64,000 nt of DNA from an uncultured Planctomycetia bacterium (GTDB lineage: Bacteria; Omnitrophota; Gorgyraeia; 1-14-0-20-64-10). This document shows positions 4,534 through 32,258 of this stretch, piece by piece. The DNA is taken from the NCBI GenBank assembly GCA_964597545.1, contig CAZQXN010000001.1:69655-133654 (forward strand). Direction: 5' to 3'. Position numbers and translations under genes: made by a program. The stretch's first letter is position 1, and every line of letters starts with the position of its first letter. The notes beneath the pieces are model-generated. The model worked only from the letters and a program-made list of their open reading frames with translations, did no database searches and was not told where the DNA came from.

Positions 4534-5787
4534 TTATCCCTTTCCCATCCGGACCGCCAGCCACCTGCCCATCTGCCGCAGGCCCTGCGCCGTCAGGATC
4601 AATAAAACCGGCTCGACCGCCCACCGATGCCGAGTCTCAATGTAGGCGAGGCTCTGGATTGCGGCGATCGAAAGCATCAGAAGAATCGGCAACCACTTGC
4701 CGCTGCCTGCCGCAGCATCCCTGAAGAAAGAGCGCGCCCCCAGCAGCGCACCGGCCAGCACCAAAAGATAGAACAGCTTGTATAACAGAAACCAGAGCTT
4801 CGGATACAGCAGTCCCGCCTGCGGCGTGAACCACCAGAAGAAATAAAACTTCTTGGCCGTCCTAGCCAAAAACCCAATGGGGTGCTCAGCCACATACCCT
4901 GTGGCCTCTTTCCAAAAGAGCTTATTCTGTCCCATCTCGTCGAGGCGGAAGATCTGCTCCTTGAGGGCCGGATCAGCCAGATTGAAGATATCTTCGCGCT
5001 CCGAGGATAAAGCAGAACCTGAGAAGTTCTCGTTGTTGCCCAGCCAGAAGACATAAGGTGTATTGGAGCGGGTCAAAACAAACTCCCCTTGCACTTGGTA
5101 ATTCCTGAAAACCCAAGGAGCAAGCACACACCCCAGCACCGCGACAAAGAGCAGGGTGCGGCGAGCAGCGAGCCCAAGACCCATCTTGCGTACGCGGAAG
5201 ATGTAGACAAAGGCCAGAGGCAGGAAGACCAGCGCTGTCGGTCGAGTAAGAGCACATACGCCGCTCACCAGTGCCGCCCCCACCCAATCCCTCAACCGAA
5301 AGTGCTTAAGCACCCGGAGCATCATCAAAAGCACTAAGCTCATCCCAAGAGCATCCAGGGTCAAGGGGTGGAGCTTGGTGGCATAGACAATCAGCCCTGG
5401 ATGCAGGGCGACGAGGGCCGCGGCCAAAAGGGCTGCCTTGGGTGAAACGATCGCCCGAGCACAGTGATAGATCACCACAACCAGCCCCGCCGACAAAAGG
5501 GCCTGGACCACCTGAAGTGCTAACACATTGTGCTTGGTCAAGAAATAGATGAATGCCGCCAGGGCCGGGTAAAGGGGCTCGCAGTAAGAACGATATAGGG
5601 TCCCAAGGTGCGGATAGACAAAGCCATTGCCCTCAAGCAGGTTGGTGGCGATCACCTCATACTCCCAAAACTGAGGGGGGATCACCGCCAGCGCCAAGAG
5701 GCGCACGGCCAAGGCCAGAGCGAAAATAGAGACAATCCAAAGGCCCCAGCGGGATTGCGCAACGGCTTGAGGAGGTGCGGTATCCAT
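4534..5787 (-). CDS. GT39/GT83-family membrane glycosyltransferase (ArnT/PMT-like)
   Basis: The 417-aa polytopic ORF has an N-terminal architecture typical of ArnT/dolichyl-phosphate-mannose mannosyltransferase-like enzymes (...RLLALAVIPPQFWEYEVIATNLLEGNGFVYPH...). Confidence 0.65.
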   Translation of the reverse strand: MDTAPPQAVAQSRWGLWIVSIFALALAVRLLALAVIPPQFWEYEVIATNLLEGNGFVYPHLGTLYRSYCEPLYPALAAFIYFLTKHNVLALQVVQALLSAGLVVVIYHCARAIVSPKAALLAAALVALHPGLIVYATKLHPLTLDALGMSLVLLMMLRVLKHFRLRDWVGAALVSGVCALTRPTALVFLPLAFVYIFRVRKMGLGLAARRTLLFVAVLGCVLAPWVFRNYQVQGEFVLTRSNTPYVFWLGNNENFSGSALSSEREDIFNLADPALKEQIFRLDEMGQNKLFWKEATGYVAEHPIGFLARTAKKFYFFWWFTPQAGLLYPKLWFLLYKLFYLLVLAGALLGARSFFRDAAAGSGKWLPILLMLSIAAIQSLAYIETRHRWAVEPVLLILTAQGLRQMGRWLAVRMGKG

Positions 5788-5925
5788 AGGACCTAAGTAT
5801 CACCACTTCTGTCGGACCCGTCAATACCTATCCATTCTGGATTCCCCCTGCTCCGTACGTTAATATACATAAAGTTGGTTATTTTCCTTGTTTTTTACCC
5901 CCTTTATAGGCCATACTTTCCTTAT

Positions 5926-8900
5926 ATGGTACATCATACGATGACACGCCCATTGGCCTTCCTGCTGGCCCTCCTGATTGGTTTGCCTGCCCCTGCTCTC
6001 CTGGGCAGCCAGGCACTGGCTGCGGAGCATGGTGCGGCTTCCTCTAGCCGCAGCCATCATCTGCGCCCTTCCATTGAAGAGCGGGTGGAGGCTGATCTCG
6101 CCTCCGGCCTGGAGGAGGGGGCTGAGGATCTCGCAACCATTCTTGAGGTGCCGACAATCCAGCAGCTGAGCGCAATCCCCCTCGAAAGAATCGGAGAGGC
6201 CTATCTGCTGGATCCCAGACCGACAACATCCGATTTGAAAGATCAATTTGAGTCTGCCCAGCGGGAGCTCTGGTCGGTTGGATTCAAGCACCGGGAGGCC
6301 CCTCATCTTGTCGTCGGCGTGGGCAGAGAGATTAAAGCGTCGGGGATAACCCATTTCTTGGGCAAGCTGTATTCACGGACAAGACCGACCTCTGTGAGGA
6401 TGCTTCACAAACATCCCGTTCGCTCAGCAATCCCGTCGCACAAGGATTTCAGCGGACTCAAGGAGTGGCGTAAGCGATATGGAAAAAGCGTTCGGCGGCA
6501 GCGCAATTGGATCAACGGCGCAGACAACGGCATCCAGCGCTTTGTGGAGTACGGACACCGGCGCTTGTGGCGCATATTCTCATCCAAGAAGCTACAGGCG
6601 CGGATCTGGAGGGGCGGTCCCAAGAAACCCGCCGAAGCATTCTTCATCCCGGGCACCGATCGATGGCATGTCAGCGACATCAGAAATCACTCTTTGCCGG
6701 GAACCGACCAGGAAGGACACTCCTACTTCTTCAGCCTGGTGGATACGCCGGGCGTTCAGCGGGTTGAATTCAACGACCATCAAGGACGCTGGGCAAGCTG
6801 CAGTGCGAGCGACACCTGGGAAGAGCTACTTGAGTCACAGGGTTACACCAGGCCAGCCTACTCCGGCCTGGAGGAGGAGTGGGTGGAGCGTATCCGTACA
6901 GCAACCCAGCAGTGGCAAGCCAAGGGTTGGAAGCTTTATGACCCTGAGGAGCTCTCCTCAGCTTTTGCCAAGATTGCCGCAAAGCTCGGGTCGGGTTTGG
7001 AGAAAACCCAAGCCTTGGACGCGCAGGATACCAGGCGTTTCATCTGGGAGCGCCGTCAAGAATTCATGGTGGCCTTCTCGCATCTGGCCGAGGCGCTGCA
7101 TCTGCCCCCTGAAAACAATCCGCTAAGCGTCATCGCACTCACCCCTGCACGCGGCAAGTCCCCACCAAAACAAGCTGTGTTGGATCTACCCTATGGTGAA
7201 GGGGTGCTCAGGGCGACGATCCATTTCCAGAACCCTTCCCAAACTCCCAGAACCAAATTCCAGTTTCAGATTCGGGATGCAGCGGGCACCGCCCGGCGTC
7301 TGGGTGAGATGCGCATGGGAGCTGACAAGGAACGGCGCGACACCCTTCCGCTGCTTCACATTGACGTGGTAGATCCGTTGCGCCCAAGAACACCTCACGG
7401 TGAAAAGAGGAAATGGATCTGGCACCTGGGTATCGATTGGGCCTTCACGCAGCAAGATGGCATTCAAGAGAAGCTCATCGCCTACAAGACATTCCAGGAT
7501 AATCTCGGCCAACGGGTGAGACAACTGAGCAGGCGCCCCACAAGGGACACTACCGCTGCTTCCGGCCAAGAAGAGCCAATCCTCTCCCTGCCTGGTGCAG
7601 TACAAGTACCGCTTGCAGATCTTCGCCTGGCTGAAAGAATTGAGGCACACACAGGGGTTGCCGGGATTGATCCTGTCCGGACAGCGCTGAAGCAATTGCC
7701 GAATTCGCTCGTTCTGGCGGTGGTCGGCTCTGCCTTCTTGAGTCCAGGCGAGGCGATTGCCGATCTGGACCTGGCAGTCTATGACACCGCAGAGGATGGC
7801 GCAGGGGTGTGGGAATTACTGGACAGGCTTGAAGATTGCTTGGGCCCATTGGGTGAGGTTACGCGCAGCCCGGCAGCCGGAGATGAGAAGGCGTGGACAG
7901 ACCCCTATACCCTGAGTGTCGAGGATGTGCGAGGCGGAGGAGAGAGTTTCCAGGTGGATATCTTTGCCCTTCCCATGAGTTTATTGCGCACCAACCCGAT
8001 TGTGGATGGCCTAGACGCCTTATTCTACGTCGGGGGATTCAATCCCCTCTTCCCGGTCTATGGGGTTCAAAGCAGTCAAGCGGCAGAGCAATTCGTTGAG
8101 ATTGCTGCAGCAATTCCAGAGACCACCCTGGTTGGCAATCTCACACAATGGAAGCAAGCGCTCCTGGAGGATGCGCAGATGCGTTTGAGGTTCGGCGAGT
8201 CCGAAGCAGAGGCCATCCAAAAAGTGCGCCGACGAGCCCGTACCGTTTTGTATGCCCTAGACAGCAATGAGGTCCCGGCACCAGATGCACTTCCAGGGAA
8301 CCAAAAAGAGCTTGGCGAATTGCTAAGAACCCTGCAGACCCGGCAGGGTGATTTCGTAGAGCGGGTGCGGGCAATCCGTCTCGCCTCCGGCCTGGAGGAG
8401 GGAATAGAGTTGGCTACTGTGCCGATCCCGCGAAGCGCCGATGAGACCGACGCGTACGTTAACCGGCTCCATAGAACACGAGTGGTTATCGGAGATGCCC
8501 TCCGCATTCCCTATGACCCTTCCTTTCCGGAAACGGTGGCAGAACGGCACCACCTTTCGGTGATCCGCCATCTGAACGACAATGCCTTCCTCCATTTCCT
8601 TGACAGGACCTCGATCGCCAATCCTCAGGCGCAATTTACCTTCTTCCTCACCCAAGGGGTGGTTGACGGCGCTCTGCGCTGGTTTCTGAATGTTCAATAC
8701 CAAGATAACAATCCAGAGGCGTGGGAACATCCCATCGAGAGCGCGGTGACGAAGTTAAGCGGTGGAAGCCAAAGGGATGGCGGCGGAGTGGGATTGTGGA
8801 CTGCTTACCAAGCAGTAGCGCAAATTCCTGATGCGGCCCTTATCGTTGAGGCTCGGGATGTAGACGGCCATCGGAAACGGCTGAAGTTTGTAAAGGCCTT

Positions 8901-11900
8901 AAGCAGCCCTGCTTCCTTGGAGATTCGTAATCCTGATGGGGGAACAGAAATCTTGGTCCGGCTTCCAATCCTCCCCTTGGAGATAAACCTTGGGGAGGCA
9001 GCAGAACAAACTCGAGAACTGTTGGCCGGCAGATTTGGGCAGGGGCTCTCCAGGGAAATGACCGAATCTACCATCACCCAAATCTTGCGGCACAGCCTTC
9101 TGCTGCGCGCTGTGCAGATAGGCTCAGGGGCTAGAGCGGTCCTGATTCAAGGAGAAGCTGCGCAAGAGGTGACCGGACAAGCGGTGGCAAGGGCTCTCGA
9201 CGCACTTCCAGGGTCTTCTGATGGCAATCGGTTTGTTATGCACATTGGCAGGCACCCTTCAGAAGGTCTGGCTGTATACATTGCTCCGCTGCGAGGTGAA
9301 TATCATGCCCTCAGTTCAGGAGAGGCTGTTGAGATCGCGGATCTGCTTCGACAGAGAGAGCCGACGGTAGCTTCCATTCGCTTTCCTGGGCAAGGGTCTC
9401 ATCTGGATGTTCCGCTCGGAGCGCTCAGCCGAGAGTTGATTGCGGCGAGTGTCGATCGGATTCTCCAGGGCGGCAATGGCGTCATCCAGGTGGTGCCCTT
9501 TGAGCTTGGCGAAACAGATAGGCTCGCCATTGAAGTCTTATCAACCTCCGGCCAGGAGGAGAAGCGCCCCGCCCTAGGGCAGCTTACCAAACAGCTGCGT
9601 CAAATTCACAGACCCGGTTCCACGTGGACCCCTTCACAGATTGTTGATGCAGTCCGAGCCGCCTCTGAGACAGAGGATTTTGAGCTAGAGTGGCTTGCTC
9701 CCGGACAGATCAACTCCCCTGCGCAAAGAAAGACCGCCTGGGGGAAGATCCTTCACGCCGCTTACAGTGCGGTCAACAGGGGAGGGCTGGATCCGCTCAC
9801 CTGGCGGAAGGTTCTGGAGCAAGCAGGGCTTGATCCGAATCAGGTCTATGGGCGCAAACGAAGATCGCGAAAAGGGGATGGGATAGCATCCCCGGTTGCC
9901 GTCCACCTCCATCCTCCTTTCAAGGATGGCAAGCCGAACCTGGAGGCGTTAGGGGAACCAAACCACACAGGTGTGCGACTGCCCCGCCGTCCTTGGTGGA
10001 AGGAACACGCTCCTGCTCGCGCTCTGTTCATGAACCTTGAAACAGCTGGGAGTTCAACTGGGCAAGCGATCGTTAATGCTTACGGCCCCTCCTACTCACT
10101 CCCGCTGCCCTACAACGAATCCAACCCGGACCGCGTGGTGGTGTTGGCAGATGTCCCTGAGCCGGATCAGATCCGCGTACTGGCCATCTACCACGCTCAA
10201 ACCTTAAAGCAACTCTACCCCACCGCCAATCAGATATGGATCTATCCTCGCTTCCACCTGCAAGGAGGAAAGCTCCGAGGAGATTCTTTCTTCTTAAGGG
10301 CTACAGAGAAGATCAAAGATACCTCCTGGGACAATCTGGCCGCACGGGGCCCGCAAGTCGCCCTGGCGCATAGCCGCATTGGCGTCGACTCTGGCAGTTC
10401 ATACGTCCACTGCAGGGGTATCCCGCGCCTCATTCCGTACCGTAAAGGGGTAACGCATTCAAATCCTATGCTGGTCATTGCTGATACGCGCGCAGAGGCT
10501 GAAGCACCACCCATTGCCATCTATAACAACCAGGGGGATCAAGTTGCTCCTCACTGGGAAGATGCGTCGGTTCTGGAATTTGATGCGGTCGAGCTGGCAT
10601 CGCAGCTGCTGCGCCAACTGGCAGGCGCCTCCAATCTACTGCAAGGATCCGGCAGCGAACGAACTGTGCAACATCTCGACGTCAGCCAGCTGCTCGGCGG
10701 AACACCGGCTGCCATTGCCTTCCGTGATGACAGCGAGGACGGCTTAAGGCGGCGCCTGGAAGTGGCGCTGGCGGTAGCACTTGACCCCTGGAAACCTGCT
10801 CTTTATGATCCGGCTCGTGGGCAATATCTGCCGGCCTGGGAGGCGGGCGAACCCTTAAGGGAAGCGGGAATTGCCTCTATTCAAATTACGGTTCCACCTC
10901 GACCGGAACAGCCGGAAACCGCCTGGTTGGTTGTTCCGAGCAACGGTACGGCGGGGCTGCCGGCTTACGAGGCTGATGCGTTTAGAGGGTTTCATCCGAA
11001 TCAAGCGCAAAAGCTTCCCGCCGACACAACCCACGTCATCACGCGGCCCCTCACCAGGGAAGCCCTCTCCAGAGAGGTTGTGATTCCGTTGCACTACAAC
11101 GAGCGCGCAACCAGCGTTGTGGCGCTGCTTTCCCGGGAAGCTGGGGTCAGTACGGGAGAACGCATTCCAGCAGGAAAGAATACTCGGCTCTTCTTTGAGC
11201 CGACACTTCAATTGGATCACTGGGTAGGCGAAGAGGATAACGGCAGGCCGGCTCTGGTGTTGTGGTCGCATCCCTGGCCTGGTGATACCGTTCCAGACAG
11301 CTTCACCATACCCACCATTGATCTACATCCCGATCAAACCTTTTCACTTACCCTAAGACAGCTGTTTCATGCAGCACTGCTCGGCCACACAGCAGCAGCG
11401 CACCTGAATGTCTCAGCCCTCTGGACCTTCTTAGACAGCGAAAATCAGCCGCTGTTGGCCGCTGCTATCGGCCCGGAGCGCACTGCCGGCCAGGAGGAGG
11501 CTGATACCCTCGCAGGGGTCAGCACCCGCAGTGTGGTGTCGACTTACTTTGATCCGCCATTTTACGAGCACGGAACGCTCAAGGAAGTCACAGCAGATTC
11601 AGTTTGGGAATTCACAAATTTGCCGCCTGCCTTCTGGGAAACCGCCCGAGAGAGAGCCCAGAAGCATGTTGTACTCCGCGGCGTGCGCTCGATCGACACC
11701 AATGGGCAAGCGCACTTTGCAGCCACAACAGCACAAAGGAAAACCGGCCGCTATCCCACCGCAGTGCCTTACGGCGCAGATGTTGCATTTACGGTGGCGT
11801 TTAACATGCAGCATCCCCTTCTGGGGATTCCCGAGAAAGCTTTTCACAACGGAATCCAAGTGTACCCGGCAGCAAACCATGTCGAGATGTATCTGCATTT

Positions 11901-14900
11901 CGAGGTACGCCATGGCAAGCTGGTGCCTGAAGCCTCCTTCCTGTTTAAAGCAACTGAGCGATCGATTAAGGGGGTTTGGGATCTCCCTGAAGTTTTGGAG
12001 GCAAGCTCAGTGGCGTTGGCAAACGTTTCAACACTTACGAGGCCAATCCGAAACAAGCCCAATGTATCGTTTCGGTACCGCACAAAGCGTTTCACCATTT
12101 CGGTGCCGAATGGGGAATCCGCTCCACAGCGTGTTCTGATCCTCGGCAATCCCAAGAGACCGGATGGAGATCCCCCGGAAATCGTCCACGATATGAAAAC
12201 AGGCCGAGAGGTTTGGCCCACCTGGGGGGCAGTCCCCGCGCAAACCCTGGCCGACGCCTTAGAGCGATACCACGATGAGGAGGTGGCCAGTCAGTTTCGG
12301 CGCCCTTACGACCCCCGCTACTTCAACGAGTTGCTCCAGCAGGCGCAGCGAAGTTTTCCGCAGCCTACTGAGGGGGAACGTATTGTGTTCGATCTGCTAC
12401 AAGCGGCCGCCCGAGCTGCTCGGGCGGCTCAAGGGAACAATCCTCAGCACATCGAGGACTTTTTCAGCACCAGCGCCGACCGAATCCAACAAAGGGAGCC
12501 AATCAGAGTCAACGGCGGCCTGGAGGAGACTGGAAAATTTGATTTGATACGGGCAGAGGAACCGATTCCGCCCTTCCGGCTGCCGGAGTTGCCTGATGGG
12601 TTCCGGGTAAGCGAAGGGACCTTTCCTCTGGATCCCTCAACAGCCATGTTCAGCACCTTGATTCGAGAGCACCCGGAGCTGTTTCAAGGCATGGTCCTGG
12701 ACCTTGGAACCGGAAGCGGAGCTTTGGCCATTCAACTGGCCCGCCAGGGCGCCACTGTGGTGGGTATAGACAAATTAAGAGGAGCCATCGACGATGCGCG
12801 CCACAACCTCTCCCTAGAATCACCAGAGGTGCAGGCCCGGGTCACCTTCGGAGTCAGCGATCTATACGAGAATCTTCCTCAGATCACCGGGGAAGACAGT
12901 CCTCAATTCGACGTGGTGATTTACAACAACGGTATTCGCTTAGAGAAGGTCGCCCAAATCATCCCTCGAGATGCGATGTTGAAGGCCGGGGAGGCAGGGG
13001 AAGAGGTGGCCCGGGCCGTCAGCGGGTTGGACCAGGTGCTCACTCCAAATGGCAGAAGCTTTTTCCTGGGGGGTTCGGATCGCAATCTCGTCAACCTTTT
13101 CGGGTGGGGCCATTTTGAGGAGGCAAAACCAGAGGGGTGGAGGGTGCACCCCACAACATACAAGAAAAGCATGGCGCGCATCGTAAGGCAGGTGTTGATC
13201 TTCCGGGTGGCACCCCCGGGCGTTCCGGAATCTGCCGAGGTGGTGGCCGAGCCGAGCCTTCTCAATGTCCTCTTCCTTCCGGAGCGAAGGTTTGAAGTCC
13301 CGGCCGGCCAGGAGGAGAGACGGGAGATTGAGCTGGATACGATACCGCTTCAAGAAGCCGGCTCGAGAGAGACTGATGCGCATACACCCCTCTTCGACCC
13401 CCTGAATAGACCGTTCCAAGACCCTTTAAGTCCCTTTCATCCAATCCGCATTGACATGGGACCGATCCTCACGAATCTAGCAGACAACGCCAGAGAGCAT
13501 TTCCTGGAGCGCTTCCCGGATGTTGCGAACAAGACGGCTCAACTCAAACTTTCTGTTGCTGAACGAGATGCTGGGGATCGGTCCCTCATCATCCGCTACC
13601 AGGACAACAATCCGCATCCCTGGGAAATTCCGATTGACGAGGCGGTCCGAGGCTGGGGTGAGAGCAGAAAAGAACTTTCATGGGGAATAGGAGAGGGCTT
13701 GACAGGATCTTATAGAAGGACAATGAAGCTGGGTGGTCGCTTCACCGTGGAGGGGATGGACCCGAACGAAGGGCGCACCCGTCTGATCTACGCCGAGCCT
13801 GACCAAGAGCCTGCACCGGAAGATCGTCGCTACCAGAGCGATGGGACAGAGATCGTAGCTGAGCTTCCGATTCAAGCTCCAGATCAGTCCCTTGAAGCGC
13901 TTGCCGAATCCTTCCGTCAGAGCCTGGCCTCCGGCCAGGAGGGGCGTTCTGACGAATGGCGCCTCAGGGATAAAAAGGTTTCTGGGGGTCCGGCGATTCG
14001 GTGGCGGCCTCTCACCAATACGCCTGAGATGGTAAGTCGGTCGGAGCTAGAGCACGCCCAGCGGCGCGCTTACGACGAACATATTTTTGACCACCTCCCA
14101 AAGGATCTGGTACCCGCCCTTTCTGGTGGCATCTCTGGATTGCTGGCTCAGTTTGAGCAAGAAAACCGAGCAAGCGGCAAACCCTTCGCTTGGTGGGATG
14201 GGGCAGGCGGCATCGGCACGGCACTCCATCAGGCACGCGGCAGCGGCCATTATCCACACTTGGTACCTGTCCTTGTCGATCTTGTCAACTGGAAAGAAGA
14301 AGAGCTACCCCAGAAAGCAAGAGGGTGGCTCCGTCAGATGGCGCCGATTTGGGGGGTGGATTACCAAGATTTCTGGTCTAAGAAAGGTGTTGGGTTTATT
14401 TCGGGGGATCTTTCGACGCTTTATATTCCGCCAGAAGAAGCATCTTCCATCCGCCTTTTTACAATCATCGGATCGCTGGGTTTCTTTGATAATCCTTTGG
14501 GTGCCCTGCTAAACGTCTATAATCAACTCCCGGATGACGCCATCCTCCTAGCACCCTTATTCATCTCGATGGAAGACCCTCGGCGCCCTGAGCCAGAGGA
14601 GGCCGTCGTTGACTTCTATCGGGACGTGGTGGTTCCTGATCTTAAAGCGCATGGTGTTCAAGTCGATTTCAAGAAGACCAATCAGATGGAAGAGGCGGCC
14701 GTTGCTCAGGGACTCGGCGCGGGCATTCCGCAATTCCAGGCCGGATTCGTGTTCGTTAAGACGCCTGGATCAATCAAGCTGCTCCTTACGCCTAAAGTAC
14801 GCACCTTCCCGCAGAAGACAACCCGTGACGTTCTAGCGAAGGTCGTTCATTATGAGGGGGATCTTGAGAACCCCTTCGCTTACCATCCTCCTACCTCCGG

Positions 14901-15360
14901 CCTGGAGGAGGCGGTTGTGTGGGAATCAACGGTGTTTCGGGGGCAATTCCCGCAACTGGCAGACCAGATTCCAGCAAACGCCACTCATCTTTTGGGGGTG
15001 CCCCTCGACGGTGCGGTCACGCTGTATCGGCCTGAGACCTTGGCCGGAGGGCTGGAGGAACGAATTCGAGTAGAAGCAGAGCATTTCCCTGGTGTCGTCA
15101 TCCGGGCACAGCCGATTCCGCCGGCCGAGCGCAGCGTTCAGCGCCCTGCAGTTTTTGTGCTGGATACCCTCTTGGAGCTTAAGCTCCCCTACGAGCCCAC
15201 TCCTGCTGTGCACCACCAACTGGGCCAAGCGCTCCCGCCGCTGTTGAGGCTTATTGCCATGGCTTTAGCAGGTCGGACCGATGTCGTTGCTGCCTGGGTT
15301 GTCGGCCAGGTGGTTGAGGAAGATGGCCGGCAATACTTTGTCCTGGCGGTTCAACTGTAA
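5926..15360 (+). CDS. Giant protein of about 3,145 aa with a predicted signal peptide; NTase-like motif, two GHKL-like ATPase-like segments, two SAM-MTase-like segments and an internally duplicated module; function unknown
   Basis: One stop-free frame runs from 5875 to 15360 (9.5 kb). The first in-frame ATGs are 5926 (MVHHTMTRPLAFLLALLIGLPAPALLGSQALAAE) and 5941; the ORF-track start at 5875 is a TTG. The N-terminus looks like a signal peptide. The motifs I read are: VVGSAFLSPGEAIADLDLAVYD (hG[GS]x9-13DhD, about 7710-7790); LNDNAFLHF...YQDNNPEAWE...GGVGLW (about 8560-8900) and LADNAREHF...YQDNNPHPWE...GGRFTVE (about 13470-13800), which are GHKL N-box/G-box-like; VLDLGTGSGALAI...DVVIYN (about 12690-13000) and WWDGAGGIGTAL...VDLVNW (about 14190-14300), which are MTase motif I/II-like; and the duplication FFLRATEKIKDTSWDNL versus FLFKATERSIKGVWDLP (about 10290 and 11940). 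Confidence 0.85.
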   Translation: MVHHTMTRPLAFLLALLIGLPAPALLGSQALAAEHGAASSSRSHHLRPSIEERVEADLASGLEEGAEDLATILEVPTIQQLSAIPLERIGEAYLLDPRPTTSDLKDQFESAQRELWSVGFKHREAPHLVVGVGREIKASGITHFLGKLYSRTRPTSVRMLHKHPVRSAIPSHKDFSGLKEWRKRYGKSVRRQRNWINGADNGIQRFVEYGHRRLWRIFSSKKLQARIWRGGPKKPAEAFFIPGTDRWHVSDIRNHSLPGTDQEGHSYFFSLVDTPGVQRVEFNDHQGRWASCSASDTWEELLESQGYTRPAYSGLEEEWVERIRTATQQWQAKGWKLYDPEELSSAFAKIAAKLGSGLEKTQALDAQDTRRFIWERRQEFMVAFSHLAEALHLPPENNPLSVIALTPARGKSPPKQAVLDLPYGEGVLRATIHFQNPSQTPRTKFQFQIRDAAGTARRLGEMRMGADKERRDTLPLLHIDVVDPLRPRTPHGEKRKWIWHLGIDWAFTQQDGIQEKLIAYKTFQDNLGQRVRQLSRRPTRDTTAASGQEEPILSLPGAVQVPLADLRLAERIEAHTGVAGIDPVRTALKQLPNSLVLAVVGSAFLSPGEAIADLDLAVYDTAEDGAGVWELLDRLEDCLGPLGEVTRSPAAGDEKAWTDPYTLSVEDVRGGGESFQVDIFALPMSLLRTNPIVDGLDALFYVGGFNPLFPVYGVQSSQAAEQFVEIAAAIPETTLVGNLTQWKQALLEDAQMRLRFGESEAEAIQKVRRRARTVLYALDSNEVPAPDALPGNQKELGELLRTLQTRQGDFVERVRAIRLASGLEEGIELATVPIPRSADETDAYVNRLHRTRVVIGDALRIPYDPSFPETVAERHHLSVIRHLNDNAFLHFLDRTSIANPQAQFTFFLTQGVVDGALRWFLNVQYQDNNPEAWEHPIESAVTKLSGGSQRDGGGVGLWTAYQAVAQIPDAALIVEARDVDGHRKRLKFVKALSSPASLEIRNPDGGTEILVRLPILPLEINLGEAAEQTRELLAGRFGQGLSREMTESTITQILRHSLLLRAVQIGSGARAVLIQGEAAQEVTGQAVARALDALPGSSDGNRFVMHIGRHPSEGLAVYIAPLRGEYHALSSGEAVEIADLLRQREPTVASIRFPGQGSHLDVPLGALSRELIAASVDRILQGGNGVIQVVPFELGETDRLAIEVLSTSGQEEKRPALGQLTKQLRQIHRPGSTWTPSQIVDAVRAASETEDFELEWLAPGQINSPAQRKTAWGKILHAAYSAVNRGGLDPLTWRKVLEQAGLDPNQVYGRKRRSRKGDGIASPVAVHLHPPFKDGKPNLEALGEPNHTGVRLPRRPWWKEHAPARALFMNLETAGSSTGQAIVNAYGPSYSLPLPYNESNPDRVVVLADVPEPDQIRVLAIYHAQTLKQLYPTANQIWIYPRFHLQGGKLRGDSFFLRATEKIKDTSWDNLAARGPQVALAHSRIGVDSGSSYVHCRGIPRLIPYRKGVTHSNPMLVIADTRAEAEAPPIAIYNNQGDQVAPHWEDASVLEFDAVELASQLLRQLAGASNLLQGSGSERTVQHLDVSQLLGGTPAAIAFRDDSEDGLRRRLEVALAVALDPWKPALYDPARGQYLPAWEAGEPLREAGIASIQITVPPRPEQPETAWLVVPSNGTAGLPAYEADAFRGFHPNQAQKLPADTTHVITRPLTREALSREVVIPLHYNERATSVVALLSREAGVSTGERIPAGKNTRLFFEPTLQLDHWVGEEDNGRPALVLWSHPWPGDTVPDSFTIPTIDLHPDQTFSLTLRQLFHAALLGHTAAAHLNVSALWTFLDSENQPLLAAAIGPERTAGQEEADTLAGVSTRSVVSTYFDPPFYEHGTLKEVTADSVWEFTNLPPAFWETARERAQKHVVLRGVRSIDTNGQAHFAATTAQRKTGRYPTAVPYGADVAFTVAFNMQHPLLGIPEKAFHNGIQVYPAANHVEMYLHFEVRHGKLVPEASFLFKATERSIKGVWDLPEVLEASSVALANVSTLTRPIRNKPNVSFRYRTKRFTISVPNGESAPQRVLILGNPKRPDGDPPEIVHDMKTGREVWPTWGAVPAQTLADALERYHDEEVASQFRRPYDPRYFNELLQQAQRSFPQPTEGERIVFDLLQAAARAARAAQGNNPQHIEDFFSTSADRIQQREPIRVNGGLEETGKFDLIRAEEPIPPFRLPELPDGFRVSEGTFPLDPSTAMFSTLIREHPELFQGMVLDLGTGSGALAIQLARQGATVVGIDKLRGAIDDARHNLSLESPEVQARVTFGVSDLYENLPQITGEDSPQFDVVIYNNGIRLEKVAQIIPRDAMLKAGEAGEEVARAVSGLDQVLTPNGRSFFLGGSDRNLVNLFGWGHFEEAKPEGWRVHPTTYKKSMARIVRQVLIFRVAPPGVPESAEVVAEPSLLNVLFLPERRFEVPAGQEERREIELDTIPLQEAGSRETDAHTPLFDPLNRPFQDPLSPFHPIRIDMGPILTNLADNAREHFLERFPDVANKTAQLKLSVAERDAGDRSLIIRYQDNNPHPWEIPIDEAVRGWGESRKELSWGIGEGLTGSYRRTMKLGGRFTVEGMDPNEGRTRLIYAEPDQEPAPEDRRYQSDGTEIVAELPIQAPDQSLEALAESFRQSLASGQEGRSDEWRLRDKKVSGGPAIRWRPLTNTPEMVSRSELEHAQRRAYDEHIFDHLPKDLVPALSGGISGLLAQFEQENRASGKPFAWWDGAGGIGTALHQARGSGHYPHLVPVLVDLVNWKEEELPQKARGWLRQMAPIWGVDYQDFWSKKGVGFISGDLSTLYIPPEEASSIRLFTIIGSLGFFDNPLGALLNVYNQLPDDAILLAPLFISMEDPRRPEPEEAVVDFYRDVVVPDLKAHGVQVDFKKTNQMEEAAVAQGLGAGIPQFQAGFVFVKTPGSIKLLLTPKVRTFPQKTTRDVLAKVVHYEGDLENPFAYHPPTSGLEEAVVWESTVFRGQFPQLADQIPANATHLLGVPLDGAVTLYRPETLAGGLEERIRVEAEHFPGVVIRAQPIPPAERSVQRPAVFVLDTLLELKLPYEPTPAVHHQLGQALPPLLRLIAMALAGRTDVVAAWVVGQVVEEDGRQYFVLAVQL

Positions 15361-15407: not shown

Positions 15408-16445
15408 TTGTTCTCAGAAATGAGCTCATCTAACCCAAAAGGGGTCAGACCCCCTGAAGGGGGTCAGACCCCTGCGTCCCACCGCTGTGGATCGGTCGTG
15501 ATCCTGGGCCGCCCCAATGTGGGTAAGTCCACCCTTTTGAACCGCCTCCTGGGCGAGAAGATCGCGATTGTCTCGCATAAGCCGGAGACCACCCGGGAGC
15601 AACTCTTAGGCATCCTGACCCTGGCCGATGCTCAAATCCTTTTCTATGACACCCCTGGGATTTATCGAGCCCCCTCCACCCTCTTGGGCAAGCACCAGGT
15701 GCAGGCAGCTCGGGATGCCCTGGAGGCCGCGGATGTCATGCTGCTCATGACCGAAGCGCAGGCCGGGTTGACCGATGAGGATAAGCAGATTGTGGGGCTG
15801 CTGAAAACCAGAACAACGGTACCGGGTACAGCAAGTGTACCCGGTACCGAAACCGAGGGGTTGCCGGTGTTGCTGGCAATCAACAAGGCTGACCGGGTCA
15901 AGAAGTCGCTCATTCTGCCGCAGATCGAGGAAGCAAATCATCTTTATCCATTCCGGGAAATTGTGCCGATATCCGCCAGGGACGGAGACAACACCGAGCC
16001 CCTCTTAAAGGCGCTGGTCCAAGCATTGCCTGTTGGACCAGCCCTGTATCCTGCGGATGAGCTGACCGATAAGCCCGCACGTACTCTGGTCCAGGAGCTC
16101 ATCCGCGAGAAGACCTTGCTCTTTACCCACGAAGAGGTGCCTTATGCGGTGGCGGTCCTCGTTGAGGAATGGCGAGAGGGAGAAAAGCCAAAAGGGGTCA
16201 GACCCCTTAAGAAGAAGGGGTCAGACCCCGTCTACATTCGGGCAACGATCTATGTGGAGCGGGATTCGCAGAAGGGGATCTTGATCGGCAAGGGGGGAGG
16301 ACTCCTAAAGAAGATCGGGGAGGCAGCCCGCAAAGAGATTGAGGCGCTGTTGAAAGGGCCAATCTTTCTTGATCTTTGGATCAAGGTTGCCAAGAACTGG
16401 CGCAAGGACCCCCAGATGCTAAGGAGGCTGGGATATGGTGCATGA
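15408..16445 (+). CDS. era: GTPase Era, carrying three in-frame palindromic-repeat insertions
   Basis: The G1 motif ([16 protein letters not shown]), DTPG, NKAD and a C-terminal KH domain (VAVLVEEW...[37 protein letters not shown]...LDLWIKV) are all present. Relative to E. coli Era there are extra segments at the N-terminus, before the G4 motif and in the KH domain, and these coincide with the repeat elements. Confidence 0.85.
15441..15472 (+). repeat. Tandem pair of GGGGTCAGACCCC palindromes inside the era 5' coding region
   Basis: ccaaaaGGGGTCAGACCCCctgaaGGGGGTCAGACCCC, which encodes [14 protein letters not shown] in frame. Confidence 0.7.
15818..15848 (+). repeat. Dispersed palindromic element, copy B (GGTACCGGGTACA gcaag TGTACCCGGTACC), inserted in frame in era
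   Basis: A perfect 13-bp inverted repeat with a 5-nt loop. It encodes [12 protein letters not shown] in the loop between the G3 and G4 motifs of Era (E. coli has ...LREGKAPVILAVNK... here). Confidence 0.75.
16198..16239 (+). repeat. Second tandem pair of GGGGTCAGACCCC palindromes, inside the era KH domain
   Basis: ccaaaaGGGGTCAGACCCCttaagaagaaGGGGTCAGACCCC, which encodes [14 protein letters not shown] in frame. The 19-nt lead-in ccaaaaggggtcagacccc is identical to the one at 15435-15453. Confidence 0.75.
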
Positions 16446-18102: not shown

Positions 18103-18413
18103 GAGCTATTGATTCCGGGCGGAGAATGTGGCATGGTTGAAGTGAAGGCCGATAAGGGCAAACTCGTCGAAAGGCGGGGACGCAAAACCACAGACCTAAC
18201 CCGACTCCGGCGCCCCGATGTCAACGGCCTGGCCCACAAATCTTAAAGGGCAGGGGCATCCGATGGGCGAGGGGGTCGACAAGGTGGCTGGGTTGCCGAT
18301 CACCGGGCCAAAAAATAAAGGTCCCTACTCCCGGCTTCGCGGTCGGGCACACCGGGACGGGCCGTTCAGGTGATTGTACGGTAGCCTTTATCGGCTTGGC
18401 TTCATACAACTTA

Positions 18414-18503: not shown

Positions 18504-20564
18504 ATGAGTGCTCCCCGTCAACCGGCGGAACATTCCGCCCGATCCAATAAGCGTCTTCTGCTGCAGCAAATTTCTCTGTTCGCTGACCTTACGGACGAGC
18601 AGCTGGATTTCGTTGCCGACCGATCCCGCCTGGATGAATTCGACAAGGGTCAAACCATTTATACCCGGGGGGACAAGCCGGATTCCTTCTATGGCTTAGT
18701 CAGCGGCCGGGTTCGGATCTATGGGGGAGCCCCCGACCAGGCCCAGCGAGAGATCCTGGAGGTCCTGCACCGCGGCGACTACTTCGGGATGATCTCGATC
18801 CTCACCAATGAGCCTCATTCGGTGACGGCCGAGGTGGTCAACGATTCAATCCTCTTTAGAATTCAGCGGCCGGACTTCGAGGCGATCCTCAAAGAGATCC
18901 CAGCAGTTGCCGTTCACCTGTCCACCACCCTCTCTCGACGCCTGCGCCAAAAGGACTTAGGTGAGAAAAAGATCTTTGAGTCCACTCTGATCTCCATCTA
19001 CAGCCCGCTTAAGGGGACCGGACGCACCATGTACGGGATCAATCTGGCGAGCTCCCTTCACCGGGAAACCGGCAAGAAGGTGATTCTCCTCGATATGAGC
19101 CCTGCCGGGGATGCGGTCTGCCAGGCGATGGAGCGGCCTAAATGCCCCACCCCATTGAAGCTCAAGGGGGTGCGGTTTAATCAAGATCAAGTGGCCTTAG
19201 CCATTGCCCACCACCCTGAGGTGGGCTTTGACACGCTGAACATCGCGCACGACCCCAATGTCGCCTCGGATGTGACACAGATCACCCCGCTGTTATCCTA
19301 TTTGGCGAACTCCTATCATTTTGTCATCAGTGATCTGCCGCACGAGATGGACCGCACGGTCTTCAAGGCGCTGGCGCAGGCAGACCTCATTCACTTGGTC
19401 TCAACCGGGGCCAGGGCTCAATTGCATACCACCGCCGATGTCCTCGAGGATCTCAAGAAAACCGTGCAGATGGTGGACGAGCGGGTCAAGGTGGTGGTCA
19501 ACGAGAGCACCGCCAATACCGATCAGGCAGAGCGGACCTTGATTCTCAATCGCAAGGTGTACGCTACCCTGCCCCGGGTCGATGCCACCCCGGCTCCGGG
19601 GCATCCCATTGTCTCGGCCCATCCGAATTGGGAATATGCCCAATCGGTCCGCCGGATCGCGCGGGAGATCGGAGAGGTGCTGGTGGGCCTGGTACTTGGC
19701 TCCGGGGCAGCCTTGGGGCTGGCGCACATCGGGATCTTAAGGATCTTAGAGCGTGAGAAGATCCCCATCGACATCATTGCTGGTTCTTCCATGGGGGCGC
19801 TGATCGGCACCTTATGGGCCTCGGGGCTCTCCTCAAACCAGATTGAGGAGATTGCCAGCAATTTCAAAACCAAGGCCTCCCTTCTGCAATTGATCGACTT
19901 GACCATCCCGAAGTTTGGGATCTTTACCGGCCGGCGCATCACCAAATTCTTGGCGAATGAGTTCGAGGATATGACCTTCCGAGACCTGAAGCTGCCCATG
20001 AAGGTGGTGGCCTGCGATTATGTCCGGCGGGAGGTAGTGGTGTTGGACGAAGGGCCGGTGGTGCCGGCCATTCGGGCTTCGGTCTCGATCCCGGGAATCT
20101 TTGAGCCGGTCAAGATCAACCACCGTTGGTTGATTGACGGCGGCGTGCTGGATCCGGTGCCGGTAGACACGCTGGCTCAGATGGGGGTGCACAAGATCAT
20201 TGCGGTCAATACCCTGCCCAGCCCCACAGACATTCGCCGCAAGCAGGTGGAGGGAGCTGCCGAGTGGGGAGAGATCCGCCGCCAGGCACAGCGCAAGGGA
20301 CTGCTGCATGCCCTTTTGTTCCAGATGAGGCTCGCCTTCCGCAACTGGCGAGATCCCAACATCTTGGACGTCATCATGCATTCGATGCAGGCCATGGAGT
20401 ACGAGCTGGCGGAGGCTGCTTGCGCTCAGGCAGATGTGGCACTCCACCCGACGATCCCCCGAATCAACTGGTGGGAGTTCTATAATGTGGATGAGTTGAT
20501 TGAAGAGGGGACGCGCCGGGCAGAAGCGCACTTGGATGAAATCAAGCGATTGGTGTCTGAATGA
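18504..20564 (+). CDS. Cyclic-nucleotide-binding domain / degenerate ParA-MinD-like domain / patatin-like phospholipase fusion protein
   Basis: The N-terminal cNMP-binding fold reads ...FDKGQTIYTRGDKPDSFYGLVSGRVRIY.... The middle region has a degenerate Walker A (SPLKGTGRTMYGINLASSLHRETGKKVILLDMS). The C-terminal part is patatin-like, with GSSMG (GxSxG), DGG and oxyanion-like VLGSGAALG motifs. Confidence 0.8.
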   Translation: MSAPRQPAEHSARSNKRLLLQQISLFADLTDEQLDFVADRSRLDEFDKGQTIYTRGDKPDSFYGLVSGRVRIYGGAPDQAQREILEVLHRGDYFGMISILTNEPHSVTAEVVNDSILFRIQRPDFEAILKEIPAVAVHLSTTLSRRLRQKDLGEKKIFESTLISIYSPLKGTGRTMYGINLASSLHRETGKKVILLDMSPAGDAVCQAMERPKCPTPLKLKGVRFNQDQVALAIAHHPEVGFDTLNIAHDPNVASDVTQITPLLSYLANSYHFVISDLPHEMDRTVFKALAQADLIHLVSTGARAQLHTTADVLEDLKKTVQMVDERVKVVVNESTANTDQAERTLILNRKVYATLPRVDATPAPGHPIVSAHPNWEYAQSVRRIAREIGEVLVGLVLGSGAALGLAHIGILRILEREKIPIDIIAGSSMGALIGTLWASGLSSNQIEEIASNFKTKASLLQLIDLTIPKFGIFTGRRITKFLANEFEDMTFRDLKLPMKVVACDYVRREVVVLDEGPVVPAIRASVSIPGIFEPVKINHRWLIDGGVLDPVPVDTLAQMGVHKIIAVNTLPSPTDIRRKQVEGAAEWGEIRRQAQRKGLLHALLFQMRLAFRNWRDPNILDVIMHSMQAMEYELAEAACAQADVALHPTIPRINWWEFYNVDELIEEGTRRAEAHLDEIKRLVSE

Positions 20565-21825: not shown

Positions 21826-21866
21826 CCGGTACCGGGTACGCCTGTTGATAAGTGTACCCGGTACCG
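21826..21866. repeat. Dispersed palindromic element, copy C (CCGGTACCGGGTAC - loop - GTACCCGGTACC), between the dehydrogenase and the hydratase
   Basis: It begins 3 nt after the TAA at 21821-21823. The stem is 12-13 bp, and the loop gcctgttgataagt is related to the loop of copy A. Confidence 0.65.
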
Positions 21867-30321: not shown

Positions 30322-30732
30322 ATGTTTCGTCATCGATTTGGGCAGCGCTACAAGTACCAGAATACGCGCCAGTATTTGAGGCTGCCGATCTCATGGCCGG
30401 TCAAGTGCGAACCCAAGCAAGCCGAGGAGGGTCGGCACGTCACCGCCACGCAGGATGTCAGCGCCGGGGGTATGCGCATGATTGTCCGGGAGGAGGTTCC
30501 GGTCGATTCCGAGGTCGTCCTGGAGATTCATGTGCCGCCGCTGGAGCGCTCCATCCAAGCCGTGGGCCGTGTGCTGCGCTGCCAACCGAGCCGCAGGGGT
30601 TTTGAGCTGGGGGTGCGCTTTGAGAAGATCGACCCGAGAGATCAGGTAGCGCTCAATGAAGCGGTGGAGCAATTTTACAGTCCCCGCAAACGGGTTCGCC
30701 ACCAACAGTCGTGGTGGCGAAAGATCACTTAA
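30322..30732 (+). CDS. PilZ domain protein (putative c-di-GMP receptor)
   Basis: RQYLRLPISWPVKC...TQDVSAGGMRM, i.e. the PilZ signatures. Confidence 0.55.
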   Translation: MFRHRFGQRYKYQNTRQYLRLPISWPVKCEPKQAEEGRHVTATQDVSAGGMRMIVREEVPVDSEVVLEIHVPPLERSIQAVGRVLRCQPSRRGFELGVRFEKIDPRDQVALNEAVEQFYSPRKRVRHQQSWWRKIT

Positions 30733-30752
30733 GGGGGTGTGTTAAGTCCGGG

Positions 30753-32258
30753 ATGAAGCGGCTGCTCAGGGCGGGGTTGGTGTTGGGCATGATACTCGCA
30801 GGCAGCCAGTTTTCGCCGGCAGAGGCAAGATCGGTGTTGACGTTGGACGAGATTGTAGCCATGGAGAAACGAATCCGTATGGCAGCAGCGCTCGAGGAAA
30901 AAAGGGCTCGAACCGAAGCTGAGGCCTGGGCCAAAGCAGATGCTGAGGCGGAGGCGCTCGTGCAGACCGAGGCTGAACCGGAGCCGCCGCCAGAGGTCGA
31001 ACCGGCCCAGAGGCCCGCAGTGCCTGAAGCAGAAGCGGCTCAGCTTGCAACCGAGGAGGAGCATTTGCAGCCAGAGATCCCCCCTAATCTCCTTGCTGGA
31101 GGCGAGACGGCTGAGTCGGATGAGGCCATAGGAGAAGAATCGGGCCTGGAGGAAAAACTTGGAGGCGGCGGGCTGTGGCGATACCTCAAGGAGCGGACCA
31201 AATGGGGTGTGGGCTATGACATGACCTACACCGATAACCTGCTCTTAGAGGACAACGACAAGCAGGAGGAGCTGACCAGCGTGTTGGAAAGTCAGATGTT
31301 TTTTCTAGATACTGTGGGATCTCTGGTCTACGGCACCACCTATGAGGTCAACGCCTACCGCTACCACTGCAGCGACGCCAACAGTATCGACCATGATCTA
31401 TCGGCCTTTGTGGATCTTGCGCCTTCGGCACCCTACTCCATGGGGGTGAACTACCACCTGGATGTCACCAACAGCCTAGTGACCACAACCGATGAGATCG
31501 ACATCTTCTTAAGAAGTACGGACTTTCAGCGGCAAGTGACGCACACAGGAACTGGGGAATTTTCTTACTTCATCAACAACTTAGACACTCTGGACTTGAG
31601 CATGGCGTATAAGGTTGTCGACAGCCAGAGGCAGCCGGATGCCGGCCGAGACAAGAATACGCTTACGGCAACCGCGGACCTCTCCCATGAGTTTAGACCC
31701 GGCTGGTTTGTGAGTGGCGGTTATGCATTCACCAAGAAGAGGATCCCCGACGACGAAGATAAAAACTCAGTAAAGCACTTGGGGACTTTGGGCTTGCGCT
31801 ATGACTTGACCGAAGAGGCGAAGCTGAATCTCAGGCTCCAAGTAGGCAAGATCACCTTCAATGAGCTCGGGGAAAAGAGCATCCTCAGCTTTGACGGCGC
31901 AGTGAAATATCCCATCCGGCTCAGGCCCCGCCTCACGATTAATCTGGGATATCGAGACACAGAATCTTCTTCCGAGGCGGTTGGAACTACCACTGTCCGC
32001 GCCCGGAGGTCCTCCATCGGCCTGGAGTATGCGGTGACATCGCTCATCACCTTTGAATCGAAGGCCGCCTACATCAAAAACCGGTCTACCTCTTCCGCCG
32101 GTCTGACTACATTTGGCCGAAGTTATACAGTTAACAGCGGCTTTGCCTGGAACCTGCGAGAAAACGCAAAGCTTCTATTGGGCCACACACACGCGCGGTC
32201 GAAAAGCGGCGATTATACGAGCAACGTTGTGGCACTCGAATTTGAGATGGAGATCTAG
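30753..32258 (+). CDS. Putative outer-membrane beta-barrel protein of the EPS locus with a low-complexity Ala/Glu/Pro-rich N-region
   Basis: A signal peptide (MKRLLRAGLVLGMILAGSQFSPAEA), an AE-rich low-complexity region, and a C-terminal half of alternating amphipathic strands (...YTVNSGFAWNLRENAKLLLGHTHARSKSGDYTSNVVALEFEMEI). Confidence 0.4.
   Translation: MKRLLRAGLVLGMILAGSQFSPAEARSVLTLDEIVAMEKRIRMAAALEEKRARTEAEAWAKADAEAEALVQTEAEPEPPPEVEPAQRPAVPEAEAAQLATEEEHLQPEIPPNLLAGGETAESDEAIGEESGLEEKLGGGGLWRYLKERTKWGVGYDMTYTDNLLLEDNDKQEELTSVLESQMFFLDTVGSLVYGTTYEVNAYRYHCSDANSIDHDLSAFVDLAPSAPYSMGVNYHLDVTNSLVTTTDEIDIFLRSTDFQRQVTHTGTGEFSYFINNLDTLDLSMAYKVVDSQRQPDAGRDKNTLTATADLSHEFRPGWFVSGGYAFTKKRIPDDEDKNSVKHLGTLGLRYDLTEEAKLNLRLQVGKITFNELGEKSILSFDGAVKYPIRLRPRLTINLGYRDTESSSEAVGTTTVRARRSSIGLEYAVTSLITFESKAAYIKNRSTSSAGLTTFGRSYTVNSGFAWNLRENAKLLLGHTHARSKSGDYTSNVVALEFEMEI

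Follow-up and report, generated by a model that had tools for sequence, protein, structure and literature searches.

We analysed a 64,000-nucleotide stretch of DNA (hereafter the window) from contig CAZQXN010000001.1 of an uncultured Planctomycetia bacterium. A giant modular gene occupies positions 5875–15360 of its forward (+) strand and carries, spread along its length, copies of a short motif encoding SG(L/Q)EE or a close variant. In the list of open reading frames (ORFs) and their translations, the gene comprises 3161 codons counted from TTG at 5875; the start codon is likely ATG at 5926 or 5941, and the database protein P0001, a 100% match to the giant protein, begins at 5941 (MTRPLAF). 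Reading by eye predicted a Sec signal peptide at 5941–6021 (+), with the sequence MTRPLAFLLALLIGLPAPALLGSQALA before the cleavage site and AEHG after it. Similar N-termini, often with AYA before the predicted site and LRP after it, occur in six related proteins (P0002–P0005, P0007, and P0008). Around it, the window carries genes of a housekeeping kind (ATP synthase a, NUDIX, era, and fatty-acid oxidation), with era (15408–16445) directly downstream of the giant gene. The chromosomal slot between NUDIX and era is conserved, and synteny was found in two other genomes. A Pfam scan of the whole giant protein returned only methyltransferase families. The ratio of nonsynonymous to synonymous substitution rates (dN/dS) between the gene and its orthologue is 0.18–0.59, and therefore the gene is genuinely coding and under purifying selection. 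As described below, proteins of a rare family, giant, built of many modules, and bearing a signal peptide, have this motif as their conserved junction.

An earlier note on this DNA, made from the sequence alone, had counted about ten copies of the motif, all in the same frame. The ten listed copies were all present, each no more than 1–3 nt from where it had been placed and with the peptide quoted for it, and an eleventh had been overlooked at 12514 (GGCGGCCTGGAGGAG, GGLEE). From the translation, the peptide motif [S/A/G]-G-[L/Q]-E-[E/G] occurs in 11 in-frame copies, and the single frame of the ORF at 5875–15360 (+) holds every one of them. The junctions are numbered here in order along the + strand, and each interval starts at the first codon of the motif. 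Junctions 1 (6103–6117), 2 (6862–6876), 4 (8386–8400), and 10 (14896–14910) read TCCGGCCTGGAGGAG (SGLEE), while junction 3 (7561–7575) has the variant TCCGGCCAAGAAGAG and junction 5 (9547–9561) has TCCGGCCAGGAGGAG, both encoding SGQEE. Junctions 6 (11485–11499) and 8 (13303–13317) share GCCGGCCAGGAGGAG (AGQEE), junction 7 (12514–12528) is the overlooked GGLEE copy, junction 9 (13930–13944) is TCCGGCCAGGAGGGG (SGQEG), and junction 11 (15046–15060) is the variant GGAGGGCTGGAGGAA (GGLEE). The first junction lies between the leader and a JAB module, and the last precedes a C-terminal module of 103 residues. The identical 24-mer reported for two of the copies was found at 6096 and 8379, that is, at junctions 1 and 4. 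Inside the third module, a GSGLEK sequence at 6991–7005 (GGG TCG GGT TTG GAG AAA) may be a decayed or degenerate twelfth copy with non-consensus codons.

The concentration of the motif in this one gene is far above expectation. Shuffling predicted 0.11 peptide copies in the giant protein, against the 11 observed, and the other ORFs of the window (17,007 amino acids) contain only two, SGLEE in the ORF at 30711–32258 and AGLEE in the ORF at 640–1239. At the nucleotide level, the 18-mer defined in the earlier note matched 9 sites in the window with up to 3 mismatches, 8 of them within the giant ORF; shuffled sequences gave a mean of 0.42 sites, and none of 100 shuffles reached 9. The 13-mer GGCC[T/A]GGAGGAG occurs 8 times in the 64 kb, always in the giant gene, on the + strand, and in one frame.

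The giant protein was cut at the motifs into segments W1–W12, and these were compared with the corresponding segments of two relatives that a database search had returned, P0002 (J segments) and P0003 (N segments). The earlier note had proposed that the motif marks module boundaries, as linker or processing sites, and had named an alignment of the intervening segments as a check, with the absence of any modular relationship between them counting against the proposal. In this alignment, the homologous segments matched from border to border: W5/J3 with 70% identity (residues 3–387 and 4–387), W7/J4 with 72% (1–343 in both), W8/J6 with 79% (1–263 and 1–261), W11/J7 with 72% (1–50 in both), W12/J8 with 73% (1–103 in both), and W2/N8 with 41% (3–253 and 4–251). 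The segments thus behave as whole units, with the breakpoints inside the motif, and the boundary proposal is supported. Old duplications are also seen within the giant protein itself: W5 and W9 share 32% identity, and the similarity between W6 and W7 is weak. Among the modules, W2 (6106–6864, +) is a JAB/MPN+ (JAMM) metalloprotease-like module and W8 (12517–13305, +) is an S-adenosylmethionine (SAM)-dependent methyltransferase, with Pfam matches above the cut-off to Methyltransf_31, Methyltransf_25, and MTS. W9 (13306–13932, +) has weak HATPase_c (GHKL) similarity (E = 0.003, below the cut-off) and is paralogous to W5 and J3, and W5 (8389–9549, +) has a GHKL-ATPase-like N-terminal half. Homology between the C-terminal modules of the window protein and those of P0003 was undetectable by BLASTP.

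The gene for P0002 is a syntenic orthologue, located on a contig (L001) that carries the giant gene followed by era, a gene of 514 amino acids, a patatin gene, and 3HCDH. The two architectures differ by four events: an unrelated J2 stands in place of W2–W4, W6 is absent from the orthologue, J5 is extra, and W9–W10 are absent. All four breakpoints fall inside the motif, in that the similarity ends at the motif and restarts directly after it. For example, the sequence PERRFEFP-AGQEE-VVSWEVGVFQ in the orthologue directly fuses the W8 end with the W11 beginning. What relatives gain, lose, duplicate, or re-order are therefore units set off by junctions, and every module forms a cassette with A-[A/S]-G-[L/Q/M/A]-E-E at either border. 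Between the window and L001, identity is 97% for the flanking proteins and 90% for Era, whereas the shared modules are 55–80% identical. The modules have dN/dS values of 0.18–0.59 versus 0.04–0.10 in the neighbours, and dS values of 0.45–0.83 versus 0.23–0.37 in the neighbours other than era (dS of 0.63). Because of these differences in identity, dN/dS, and dS, the gene is judged to be coding yet fast-evolving, with a module content that turns over very quickly. Approximately 90 bp just upstream of the giant gene are also conserved between the two loci. Farther upstream, positions 2–100 of L001, a metagenome contig, contain, by eye, the 3′ end of a transposase/integrase-like ORF (including HSSLGYRTPAQAE) where the window has a divergent PMT_2 glycosyltransferase (4534–5787).

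Relatives were sought with a profile of W2 and N8 against 1.84 billion representative proteins. Only seven proteins were found, namely the two sources of the query and P0004–P0008, and with P0002 added the window protein has seven relatives (P0002–P0008). The pattern small-G-[L/Q/M/A]-E-[E/Q] occurs in 2–9 copies in each of these seven proteins, versus 0.13–0.66 expected, and every relative except the truncated P0006 has a signal-peptide-like N-terminal leader. Full-length genes of the family have 5–11 motifs, and the motif bounds modules even in distant relatives whose remaining modules are unrelated. The gene for P0004 is placed like the window gene, between NUDIX on its upstream side and era on its downstream side. 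The 54 junctions of the family give the consensus A-[A/S]-G-[L/Q/M/A]-E-E, beyond which preferences are weak; none of the 54 copies lacks Gly or the first Glu, both being demanded by the search pattern. The recognisable modules are SAM-dependent methyltransferases (in the window protein, P0002, and P0007), GHKL-like modules (weak), an alpha-amylase (P0005), and a 2-hydroxyacid dehydrogenase (P0008). The others are mostly orphans, and approximately 40 such orphan modules are bounded by the motif. The family is very rare and comes from uncultured bacteria, with groundwater as the metagenome source named in the records. Searches for more members returned nothing and then only the contig of P0007 (L008) among genome contigs, and nothing and then only the L005 contig among metagenome contigs. 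Word-index searches with P0003 and P0004 matched only the queries themselves, and no relatives were found in viral contigs, phage records, or plasmid records.

The earlier note had also considered that a short palindromic DNA element spread within the gene, given that the core CCTCC...GGAGG is an inverted repeat and that palindromic elements lie in frame in era of the same genome. Such a mobile mini-element, of the repetitive extragenic palindromic or miniature inverted-repeat transposable type, would have inserted repeatedly in frame. We folded 39-nt windows around all 11 copies, and the CCUCC/GGAGG stem formed in about six of them, with an ordinary folding energy (mean z = −0.87); the pairing requires a TCC serine codon preceded by C. 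The inverted repeat is therefore real in about half of the copies, but its arms are missing from 5 of the 11 and from the junction versions of all other lineages. Motif DNA was also never found outside the giant gene, whether intergenic, on the opposite strand, in another frame, or in another gene, in the window or in loci L001, L002, L003, L005, and L007, and the peptide is kept across lineages despite differing codons. In-frame palindromic inserts in era do exist as the note had said, but their sequences bear no similarity to the motif. With the hairpin in only about six of 11 copies, the palindromic-element explanation is rejected; it is refuted by these tests and retains almost no probability.

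The era inserts are located at 15441–15471, 15817–15849, and 16194–16228, and encode KGVRP- and VPGT-type peptides. Their elements are GGGGTCAGACCCC and GTACCCGGTAC, with paired short repeats also seen as GTACCGGGTACA and TGTACCCGGTAC. The number of inserts differs between the window and the L001 orthologue (345 against 321 amino acids, at 90% identity), and the GTACC element is also intergenic, at 2037–2086 and 21827–21866.

The codons of the motif are more uniform than the peptide requires. In the giant gene as a whole, TCC accounts for 18% of Ser, GGC for 33% of Gly, CTG for 31% of Leu, CAG for 48% of Gln, and GAG for 62% of Glu codons. In the motif, Ser is TCC in 7 of 7 cases, Gly is GGC in 10 of 11, and every Leu is CTG, while outside the motif only 9 of 116 Gly-Leu pairs are written GGCCTG. 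The same-codon fraction among the copies is 0.83 versus 0.39 expected, and none of 5000 simulations, in which codons were drawn from the usage of the gene itself, reached 0.83. Codon bias and codon-pair context were considered as causes, and the background of [SAT]-G and G-L dipeptides was insufficient to account for the uniformity. The version of the junction is lineage-specific and nearly uniform within each lineage: TCC GGC C[T/A]G GAG GAG in the window and L001, [A/G]CC GGG CTG GAG GAG in L002, GCC GGC ATG GAG GAG in L003, GCC GCC GGG GCG GAG in L005, and GCC GGC CTG GAG GAG in L007. Statistically, the uniformity reaches significance in four lineages (the window, L001, L003, and L005) and not in L002. 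The suggestion in the earlier note that something acts at the nucleotide level is borne out to the extent that codons are homogenised within each gene. Between lineages, the codons for Gly (GGC or GGG) and Glu (GAG or GAA) show only synonymous changes, which suggests that the deep constraint is at the protein level; the uniformity within a gene would then require a second cause. This points to recombination at the junctions or to an added nucleotide-level constraint, with recombination as the obvious candidate because the breakpoints lie in the motif.

The same data raise the possibility that the motif is primarily a DNA recombination site, in which selection maintains 13–15 bp that direct in-frame shuffling of cassettes, either by offering microhomology or by being recognised by a lineage-specific recombinase, and the peptide is largely a tolerated by-product. 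The uniformity far above expectation, with lineage versions such as TCCGGCCWGGAGGAG, RCCGGGCTGGAGGAG, GCCGGCATGGAGGAG, and GCCGCCGGGGCGGAG, would fit this explanation, as would the position of all four rearrangements between the window gene and its orthologue and the very fast turnover next to neighbours with 97% identity. However, the restriction of Gly and Glu codon changes between lineages to synonymous ones is the pattern of protein-level selection, the uniformity in L002 is not significant, no recombinase gene is conserved beside the giant gene in the four loci with flanks, and no silent cassettes were seen in the flanks. We regard a primarily DNA-level role as distinctly unlikely.

The motif could also act in translation. 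GGAGGAG can pair with the anti-Shine-Dalgarno sequence of 16S rRNA and might slow ribosomes at module ends, which would give each module time to fold or be exported ahead of the following one. Nine of the 11 window copies contain GGAGG, as do most copies in L001–L003 and L007, and such pausing would account for the preference of GAG over GAA. Against this, GAG is already 62% of Glu codons and its enrichment is weak, the strongest codon bias is upstream, in TCC-GGC-CTG, which does not resemble a Shine-Dalgarno sequence, and L005 has GGAGG in only 5 of 9 copies. Whether Shine-Dalgarno-like sequences cause pausing at all is disputed. Ribosome pausing, with the staged folding or export that it would permit, thus appears quite improbable as the main role of the motif. 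Internal translation starts after GGAGGAG were also considered and rejected, as no consistent in-frame ATG, GTG, or TTG follows.

A candidate for the protease of a cleaved array is found in the family itself. The JAB module is common to seven of the eight proteins (the window protein and six relatives). In six of the eight, it fills a whole interval from one motif to the next, and its ordinal position varies (2/12, 5/6, 8/9, 3/9, 5/6, and 3/10), while in the truncated P0006 the motif is present only at its C-terminal end. Residues E54, H101, H103, S111, and D114 are invariant in the seven sequences, which are 25–43% identical, and constitute the JAMM motif E...HxHx(7)Sx(2)D. An AlphaFold2 model of W2 had a mean predicted local distance difference test score (pLDDT) of 88.6 and a predicted template modelling score of 0.87, with a disordered start (GLEEGA, residues 1–6, pLDDT < 50). 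A Foldseek search of the PDB with this model retrieved the JAB domain of RadC (2qlc, probability 1.00), CSN5, BRCC36, and the Jab1 domain of Prp8. The Pfam scan gave no match of W2 to JAB, Prok-JAB, or RadC. In the family, Prok-JAB matched weakly in 4 of 7 members (best E = 0.0027) and RadC matched one at 0.1, all below the gathering threshold, and archaeal JAMM1 was matched at E of approximately 0.5. As modelled, W2 is a JAB/MPN fold with an intact JAMM motif and a putative peptidase function.

Taken together, the motif is most likely a processing and recombination junction of a modular giant protein that is predicted to be exported. The best explanation, to which we assign a probability of about 0.45, is a polyprotein-like array that is cut at the junctions and whose junction codons serve as recombination points. 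The chain would be exported by Sec, and the JAB module embedded in it, acting in cis or in trans, would then cleave the junctions, most probably behind the invariant Gly. JAMM enzymes cleave after the C-terminal Gly of ubiquitin-like proteins. Enzymatic modules such as the methyltransferases and GHKL-like ATPases, among others, would be released much as they are from polyproteins or multi-effector toxins. Since each junction carries the same 13–15 in-frame bases, the junctions could serve as microhomology for in-frame recombination and so drive the fast turnover of modules, and this recombination, together with some constraint at the nucleotide level, would keep the junction codons uniform in each lineage. 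Export, cleavage, the position of the cut, the identity of the protease, and the role of microhomology are what we infer from the arrangement of modules and junctions.

The motif might instead be an uncleaved inter-domain linker or capping motif, in which A-S-G-L-E-E is a structural joint, for example a Gly helix breaker followed by the acidic N-terminus of a helix, reused between domains. Its position at domain borders is what such a joint would show, a strand or helix begins a few residues past the motif in both models (W2, and W8 with W9, the latter at a pLDDT of 48.6), and one orthologue (P0002) has the motif and no JAB module. On the other hand, ordinary linkers are not conserved in sequence across unrelated flanking domains and distant lineages, and a linker leaves the uniformity of the codons unexplained. 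There are also copies with nothing to join: P0005 and P0008 each have one 2–8 residues from the C-terminus, and the motif also occurs just after the leader. These terminal copies suit a trimming site better than an inter-domain linker, and we consider a never-cut joint unlikely, although it is the likeliest of the rivals. A short element of the form LLG(V/I)P, followed after 10–15 residues by G-[L/M]-E-[E/Q], recurs ahead of the final junction (W11, 14899–15048) or at the C-terminus (P0003, P0005, and P0008), and once within W6 (residues 472–501); it may be a docking or recognition element tied to the junction.

Several points weigh against the cleaved array. We infer the link between the protease and its substrate, and the association of the JAB module with the motif is partly circular, as five relatives were found by using the JAB module as the query; moreover, one of the eight members, the orthologue P0002, carries the motif without the module. 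Within the junction, conservation is highest on the prime side (L/Q-E-E), yet JAMM enzymes normally read the non-prime side. The solved structure closest to W2 is RadC, whose clade may not be peptidases; the authors of PMC5512222 argue that RadC-type JAB domains may have nucleic acids, and not peptides, as their targets. Modules that depend on SAM, ATP, and NAD would make little sense in the periplasm, where they would be idle unless delivered onward. The model of W8 and W9 across their junction is too poor to show a linker. By itself, module turnover is probably insufficient to hold five synonymous sites in each junction uniform, and the motif codons differ between the window gene and its orthologue about as often as expected (3 of 21, versus 29% elsewhere), a comparison with too little power to address purifying selection at synonymous sites.

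A broader claim would be that these proteins form an undescribed class, Sec-exported polyproteins encoded on the chromosome that contain an embedded JAMM protease and are cut between A-[A/S]-G and [L/Q/M/A]-E-E, with uniform codons as in-frame recombination points. If so, the locus of NUDIX, the giant gene, and era would exchange its cargo among genomes that have 97% identity in the neighbouring proteins. Searches of the literature, incomplete in coverage and weak as evidence, returned no relevant paper that contains the motif strings and no account of JAMM polyproteins in bacteria. We offer this claim tentatively, as one that is rather more doubtful than probable.

Elsewhere in the window, a c-di-GMP-I-GGC riboswitch aptamer was identified at 18148–18301 (+; Rfam RF03167, 61.4 bits vs a gathering score of 59), upstream of a gene for a patatin-like phospholipase with cyclic nucleotide monophosphate binding (18504–20564). 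It is the sole Rfam match in the window, and the window has no tRNA. An ORF for GDP-mannose 4,6-dehydratase at 48076–50310 (+; 744 amino acids) is split by an insert of approximately 380 amino acids (about residues 140–516) that matches Intein_splicing, Hint_2, LAGLIDADG_3, and Hom_end; the insert is probably an intein with a homing endonuclease. A large exopolysaccharide cluster at 33411–63844 includes two tandem genes for Wzc-like tyrosine autokinase/chain-length proteins (35996–37909 and 37926–39872), a Wzy-like gene, a NodU-like carbamoyltransferase, and GT4 glycosyltransferases.

By analogy with known systems, the giant protein works most like toxins of the MARTX type (multifunctional autoprocessing repeats-in-toxin) and also resembles polyvalent proteins, and it fails the defining features of both. 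MARTX toxins are likewise very large secreted proteins with arrayed, unrelated effector modules and an internal protease that cuts between them. The MARTX cysteine protease domain cleaves after Leu, while the candidate protease here is a JAMM metalloenzyme and the junction is a fixed motif of 5–6 residues with uniform codons. In the Pfam scan, the giant protein had no Peptidase_C80 domain and no RTX or glycine-rich repeats, and it has an N-terminal Sec-type leader rather than a C-terminal type I secretion signal. The modular array and its conserved junctions are observed here, and processing is proposed. In MARTX toxins, the module repertoire differs between strains through recombination, as stated in PMC6315884 with reference to Kwak et al. 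(2011).

The polyvalent proteins of phages and conjugative elements carry 2–15 unrelated enzymatic domains, including methyltransferases and JAB/RadC, and autoproteolytic release has been proposed for them, by way of an embedded peptidase (Iyer, Burroughs, Anand, de Souza, and Aravind, 2017; PMC5512222). The giant protein shares with them the many unrelated enzymatic domains per polypeptide and a mosaic, fast-evolving architecture. It differs in the conserved chromosomal slot of its gene, in the lack of viral, phage, or plasmid relatives in the searches above, and in its signal peptide. A conserved junction motif is not among the features of polyvalent proteins described in the accessible text of PMC5512222.

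In viral polyproteins, too, the same short site recurs at each junction and a protease is among the modules (here missing from P0002, one of eight members), but the present gene is cellular and chromosomal, its product is predicted to be exported, and its cleavage is proposed. With the JAMM/MPN+ peptidases (CSN5, BRCC36, archaeal JAMM1, and Prok-JAB), W2 shares the MPN fold and the E...HxHx7Sx2D zinc site, and the proposed cut after a small residue and Gly recalls the cut after Gly-Gly of ubiquitin-like proteins. It differs from them in lacking a ubiquitin-like domain ahead of the cut site, in the conservation of the prime side (L/Q-E-E), in being itself part of the presumed substrate, and in Pfam scores that stay below the cut-off. 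In polymorphic toxins, VENN in CdiA and PxxxxDPxGL in Rhs are demarcation motifs, present once per gene, with a C-terminal toxin and an immunity gene downstream. The window gene has 11 motifs, its modules are internal, and it is followed by era, with no immunity-like gene. In PMC3482391, such a short peptide and its coding sequence are described as marking cassette exchange by recombination.

Autoprocessed bacterial multi-module proteins are known mainly from pathogen toxins such as MARTX and from the polyvalent proteins of phages and plasmids. If the proposed processing is correct, the family described here would add a version from uncultured environmental bacteria that is chromosomal and Sec-exported, with a JAMM protease and a fixed junction peptide, and it would widen the known substrates of prokaryotic JAB domains beyond ubiquitin-like tails. 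The uniform codons raise the question of whether selection can act on a short coding motif jointly for its peptide and for a signal in recombination or RNA. The approximately 40 motif-bounded orphan modules are a catalogue of candidate effector domains. With four in-frame events between genomes that have 97% identity in their flanking proteins, the locus is also a clean natural example of domain shuffling.

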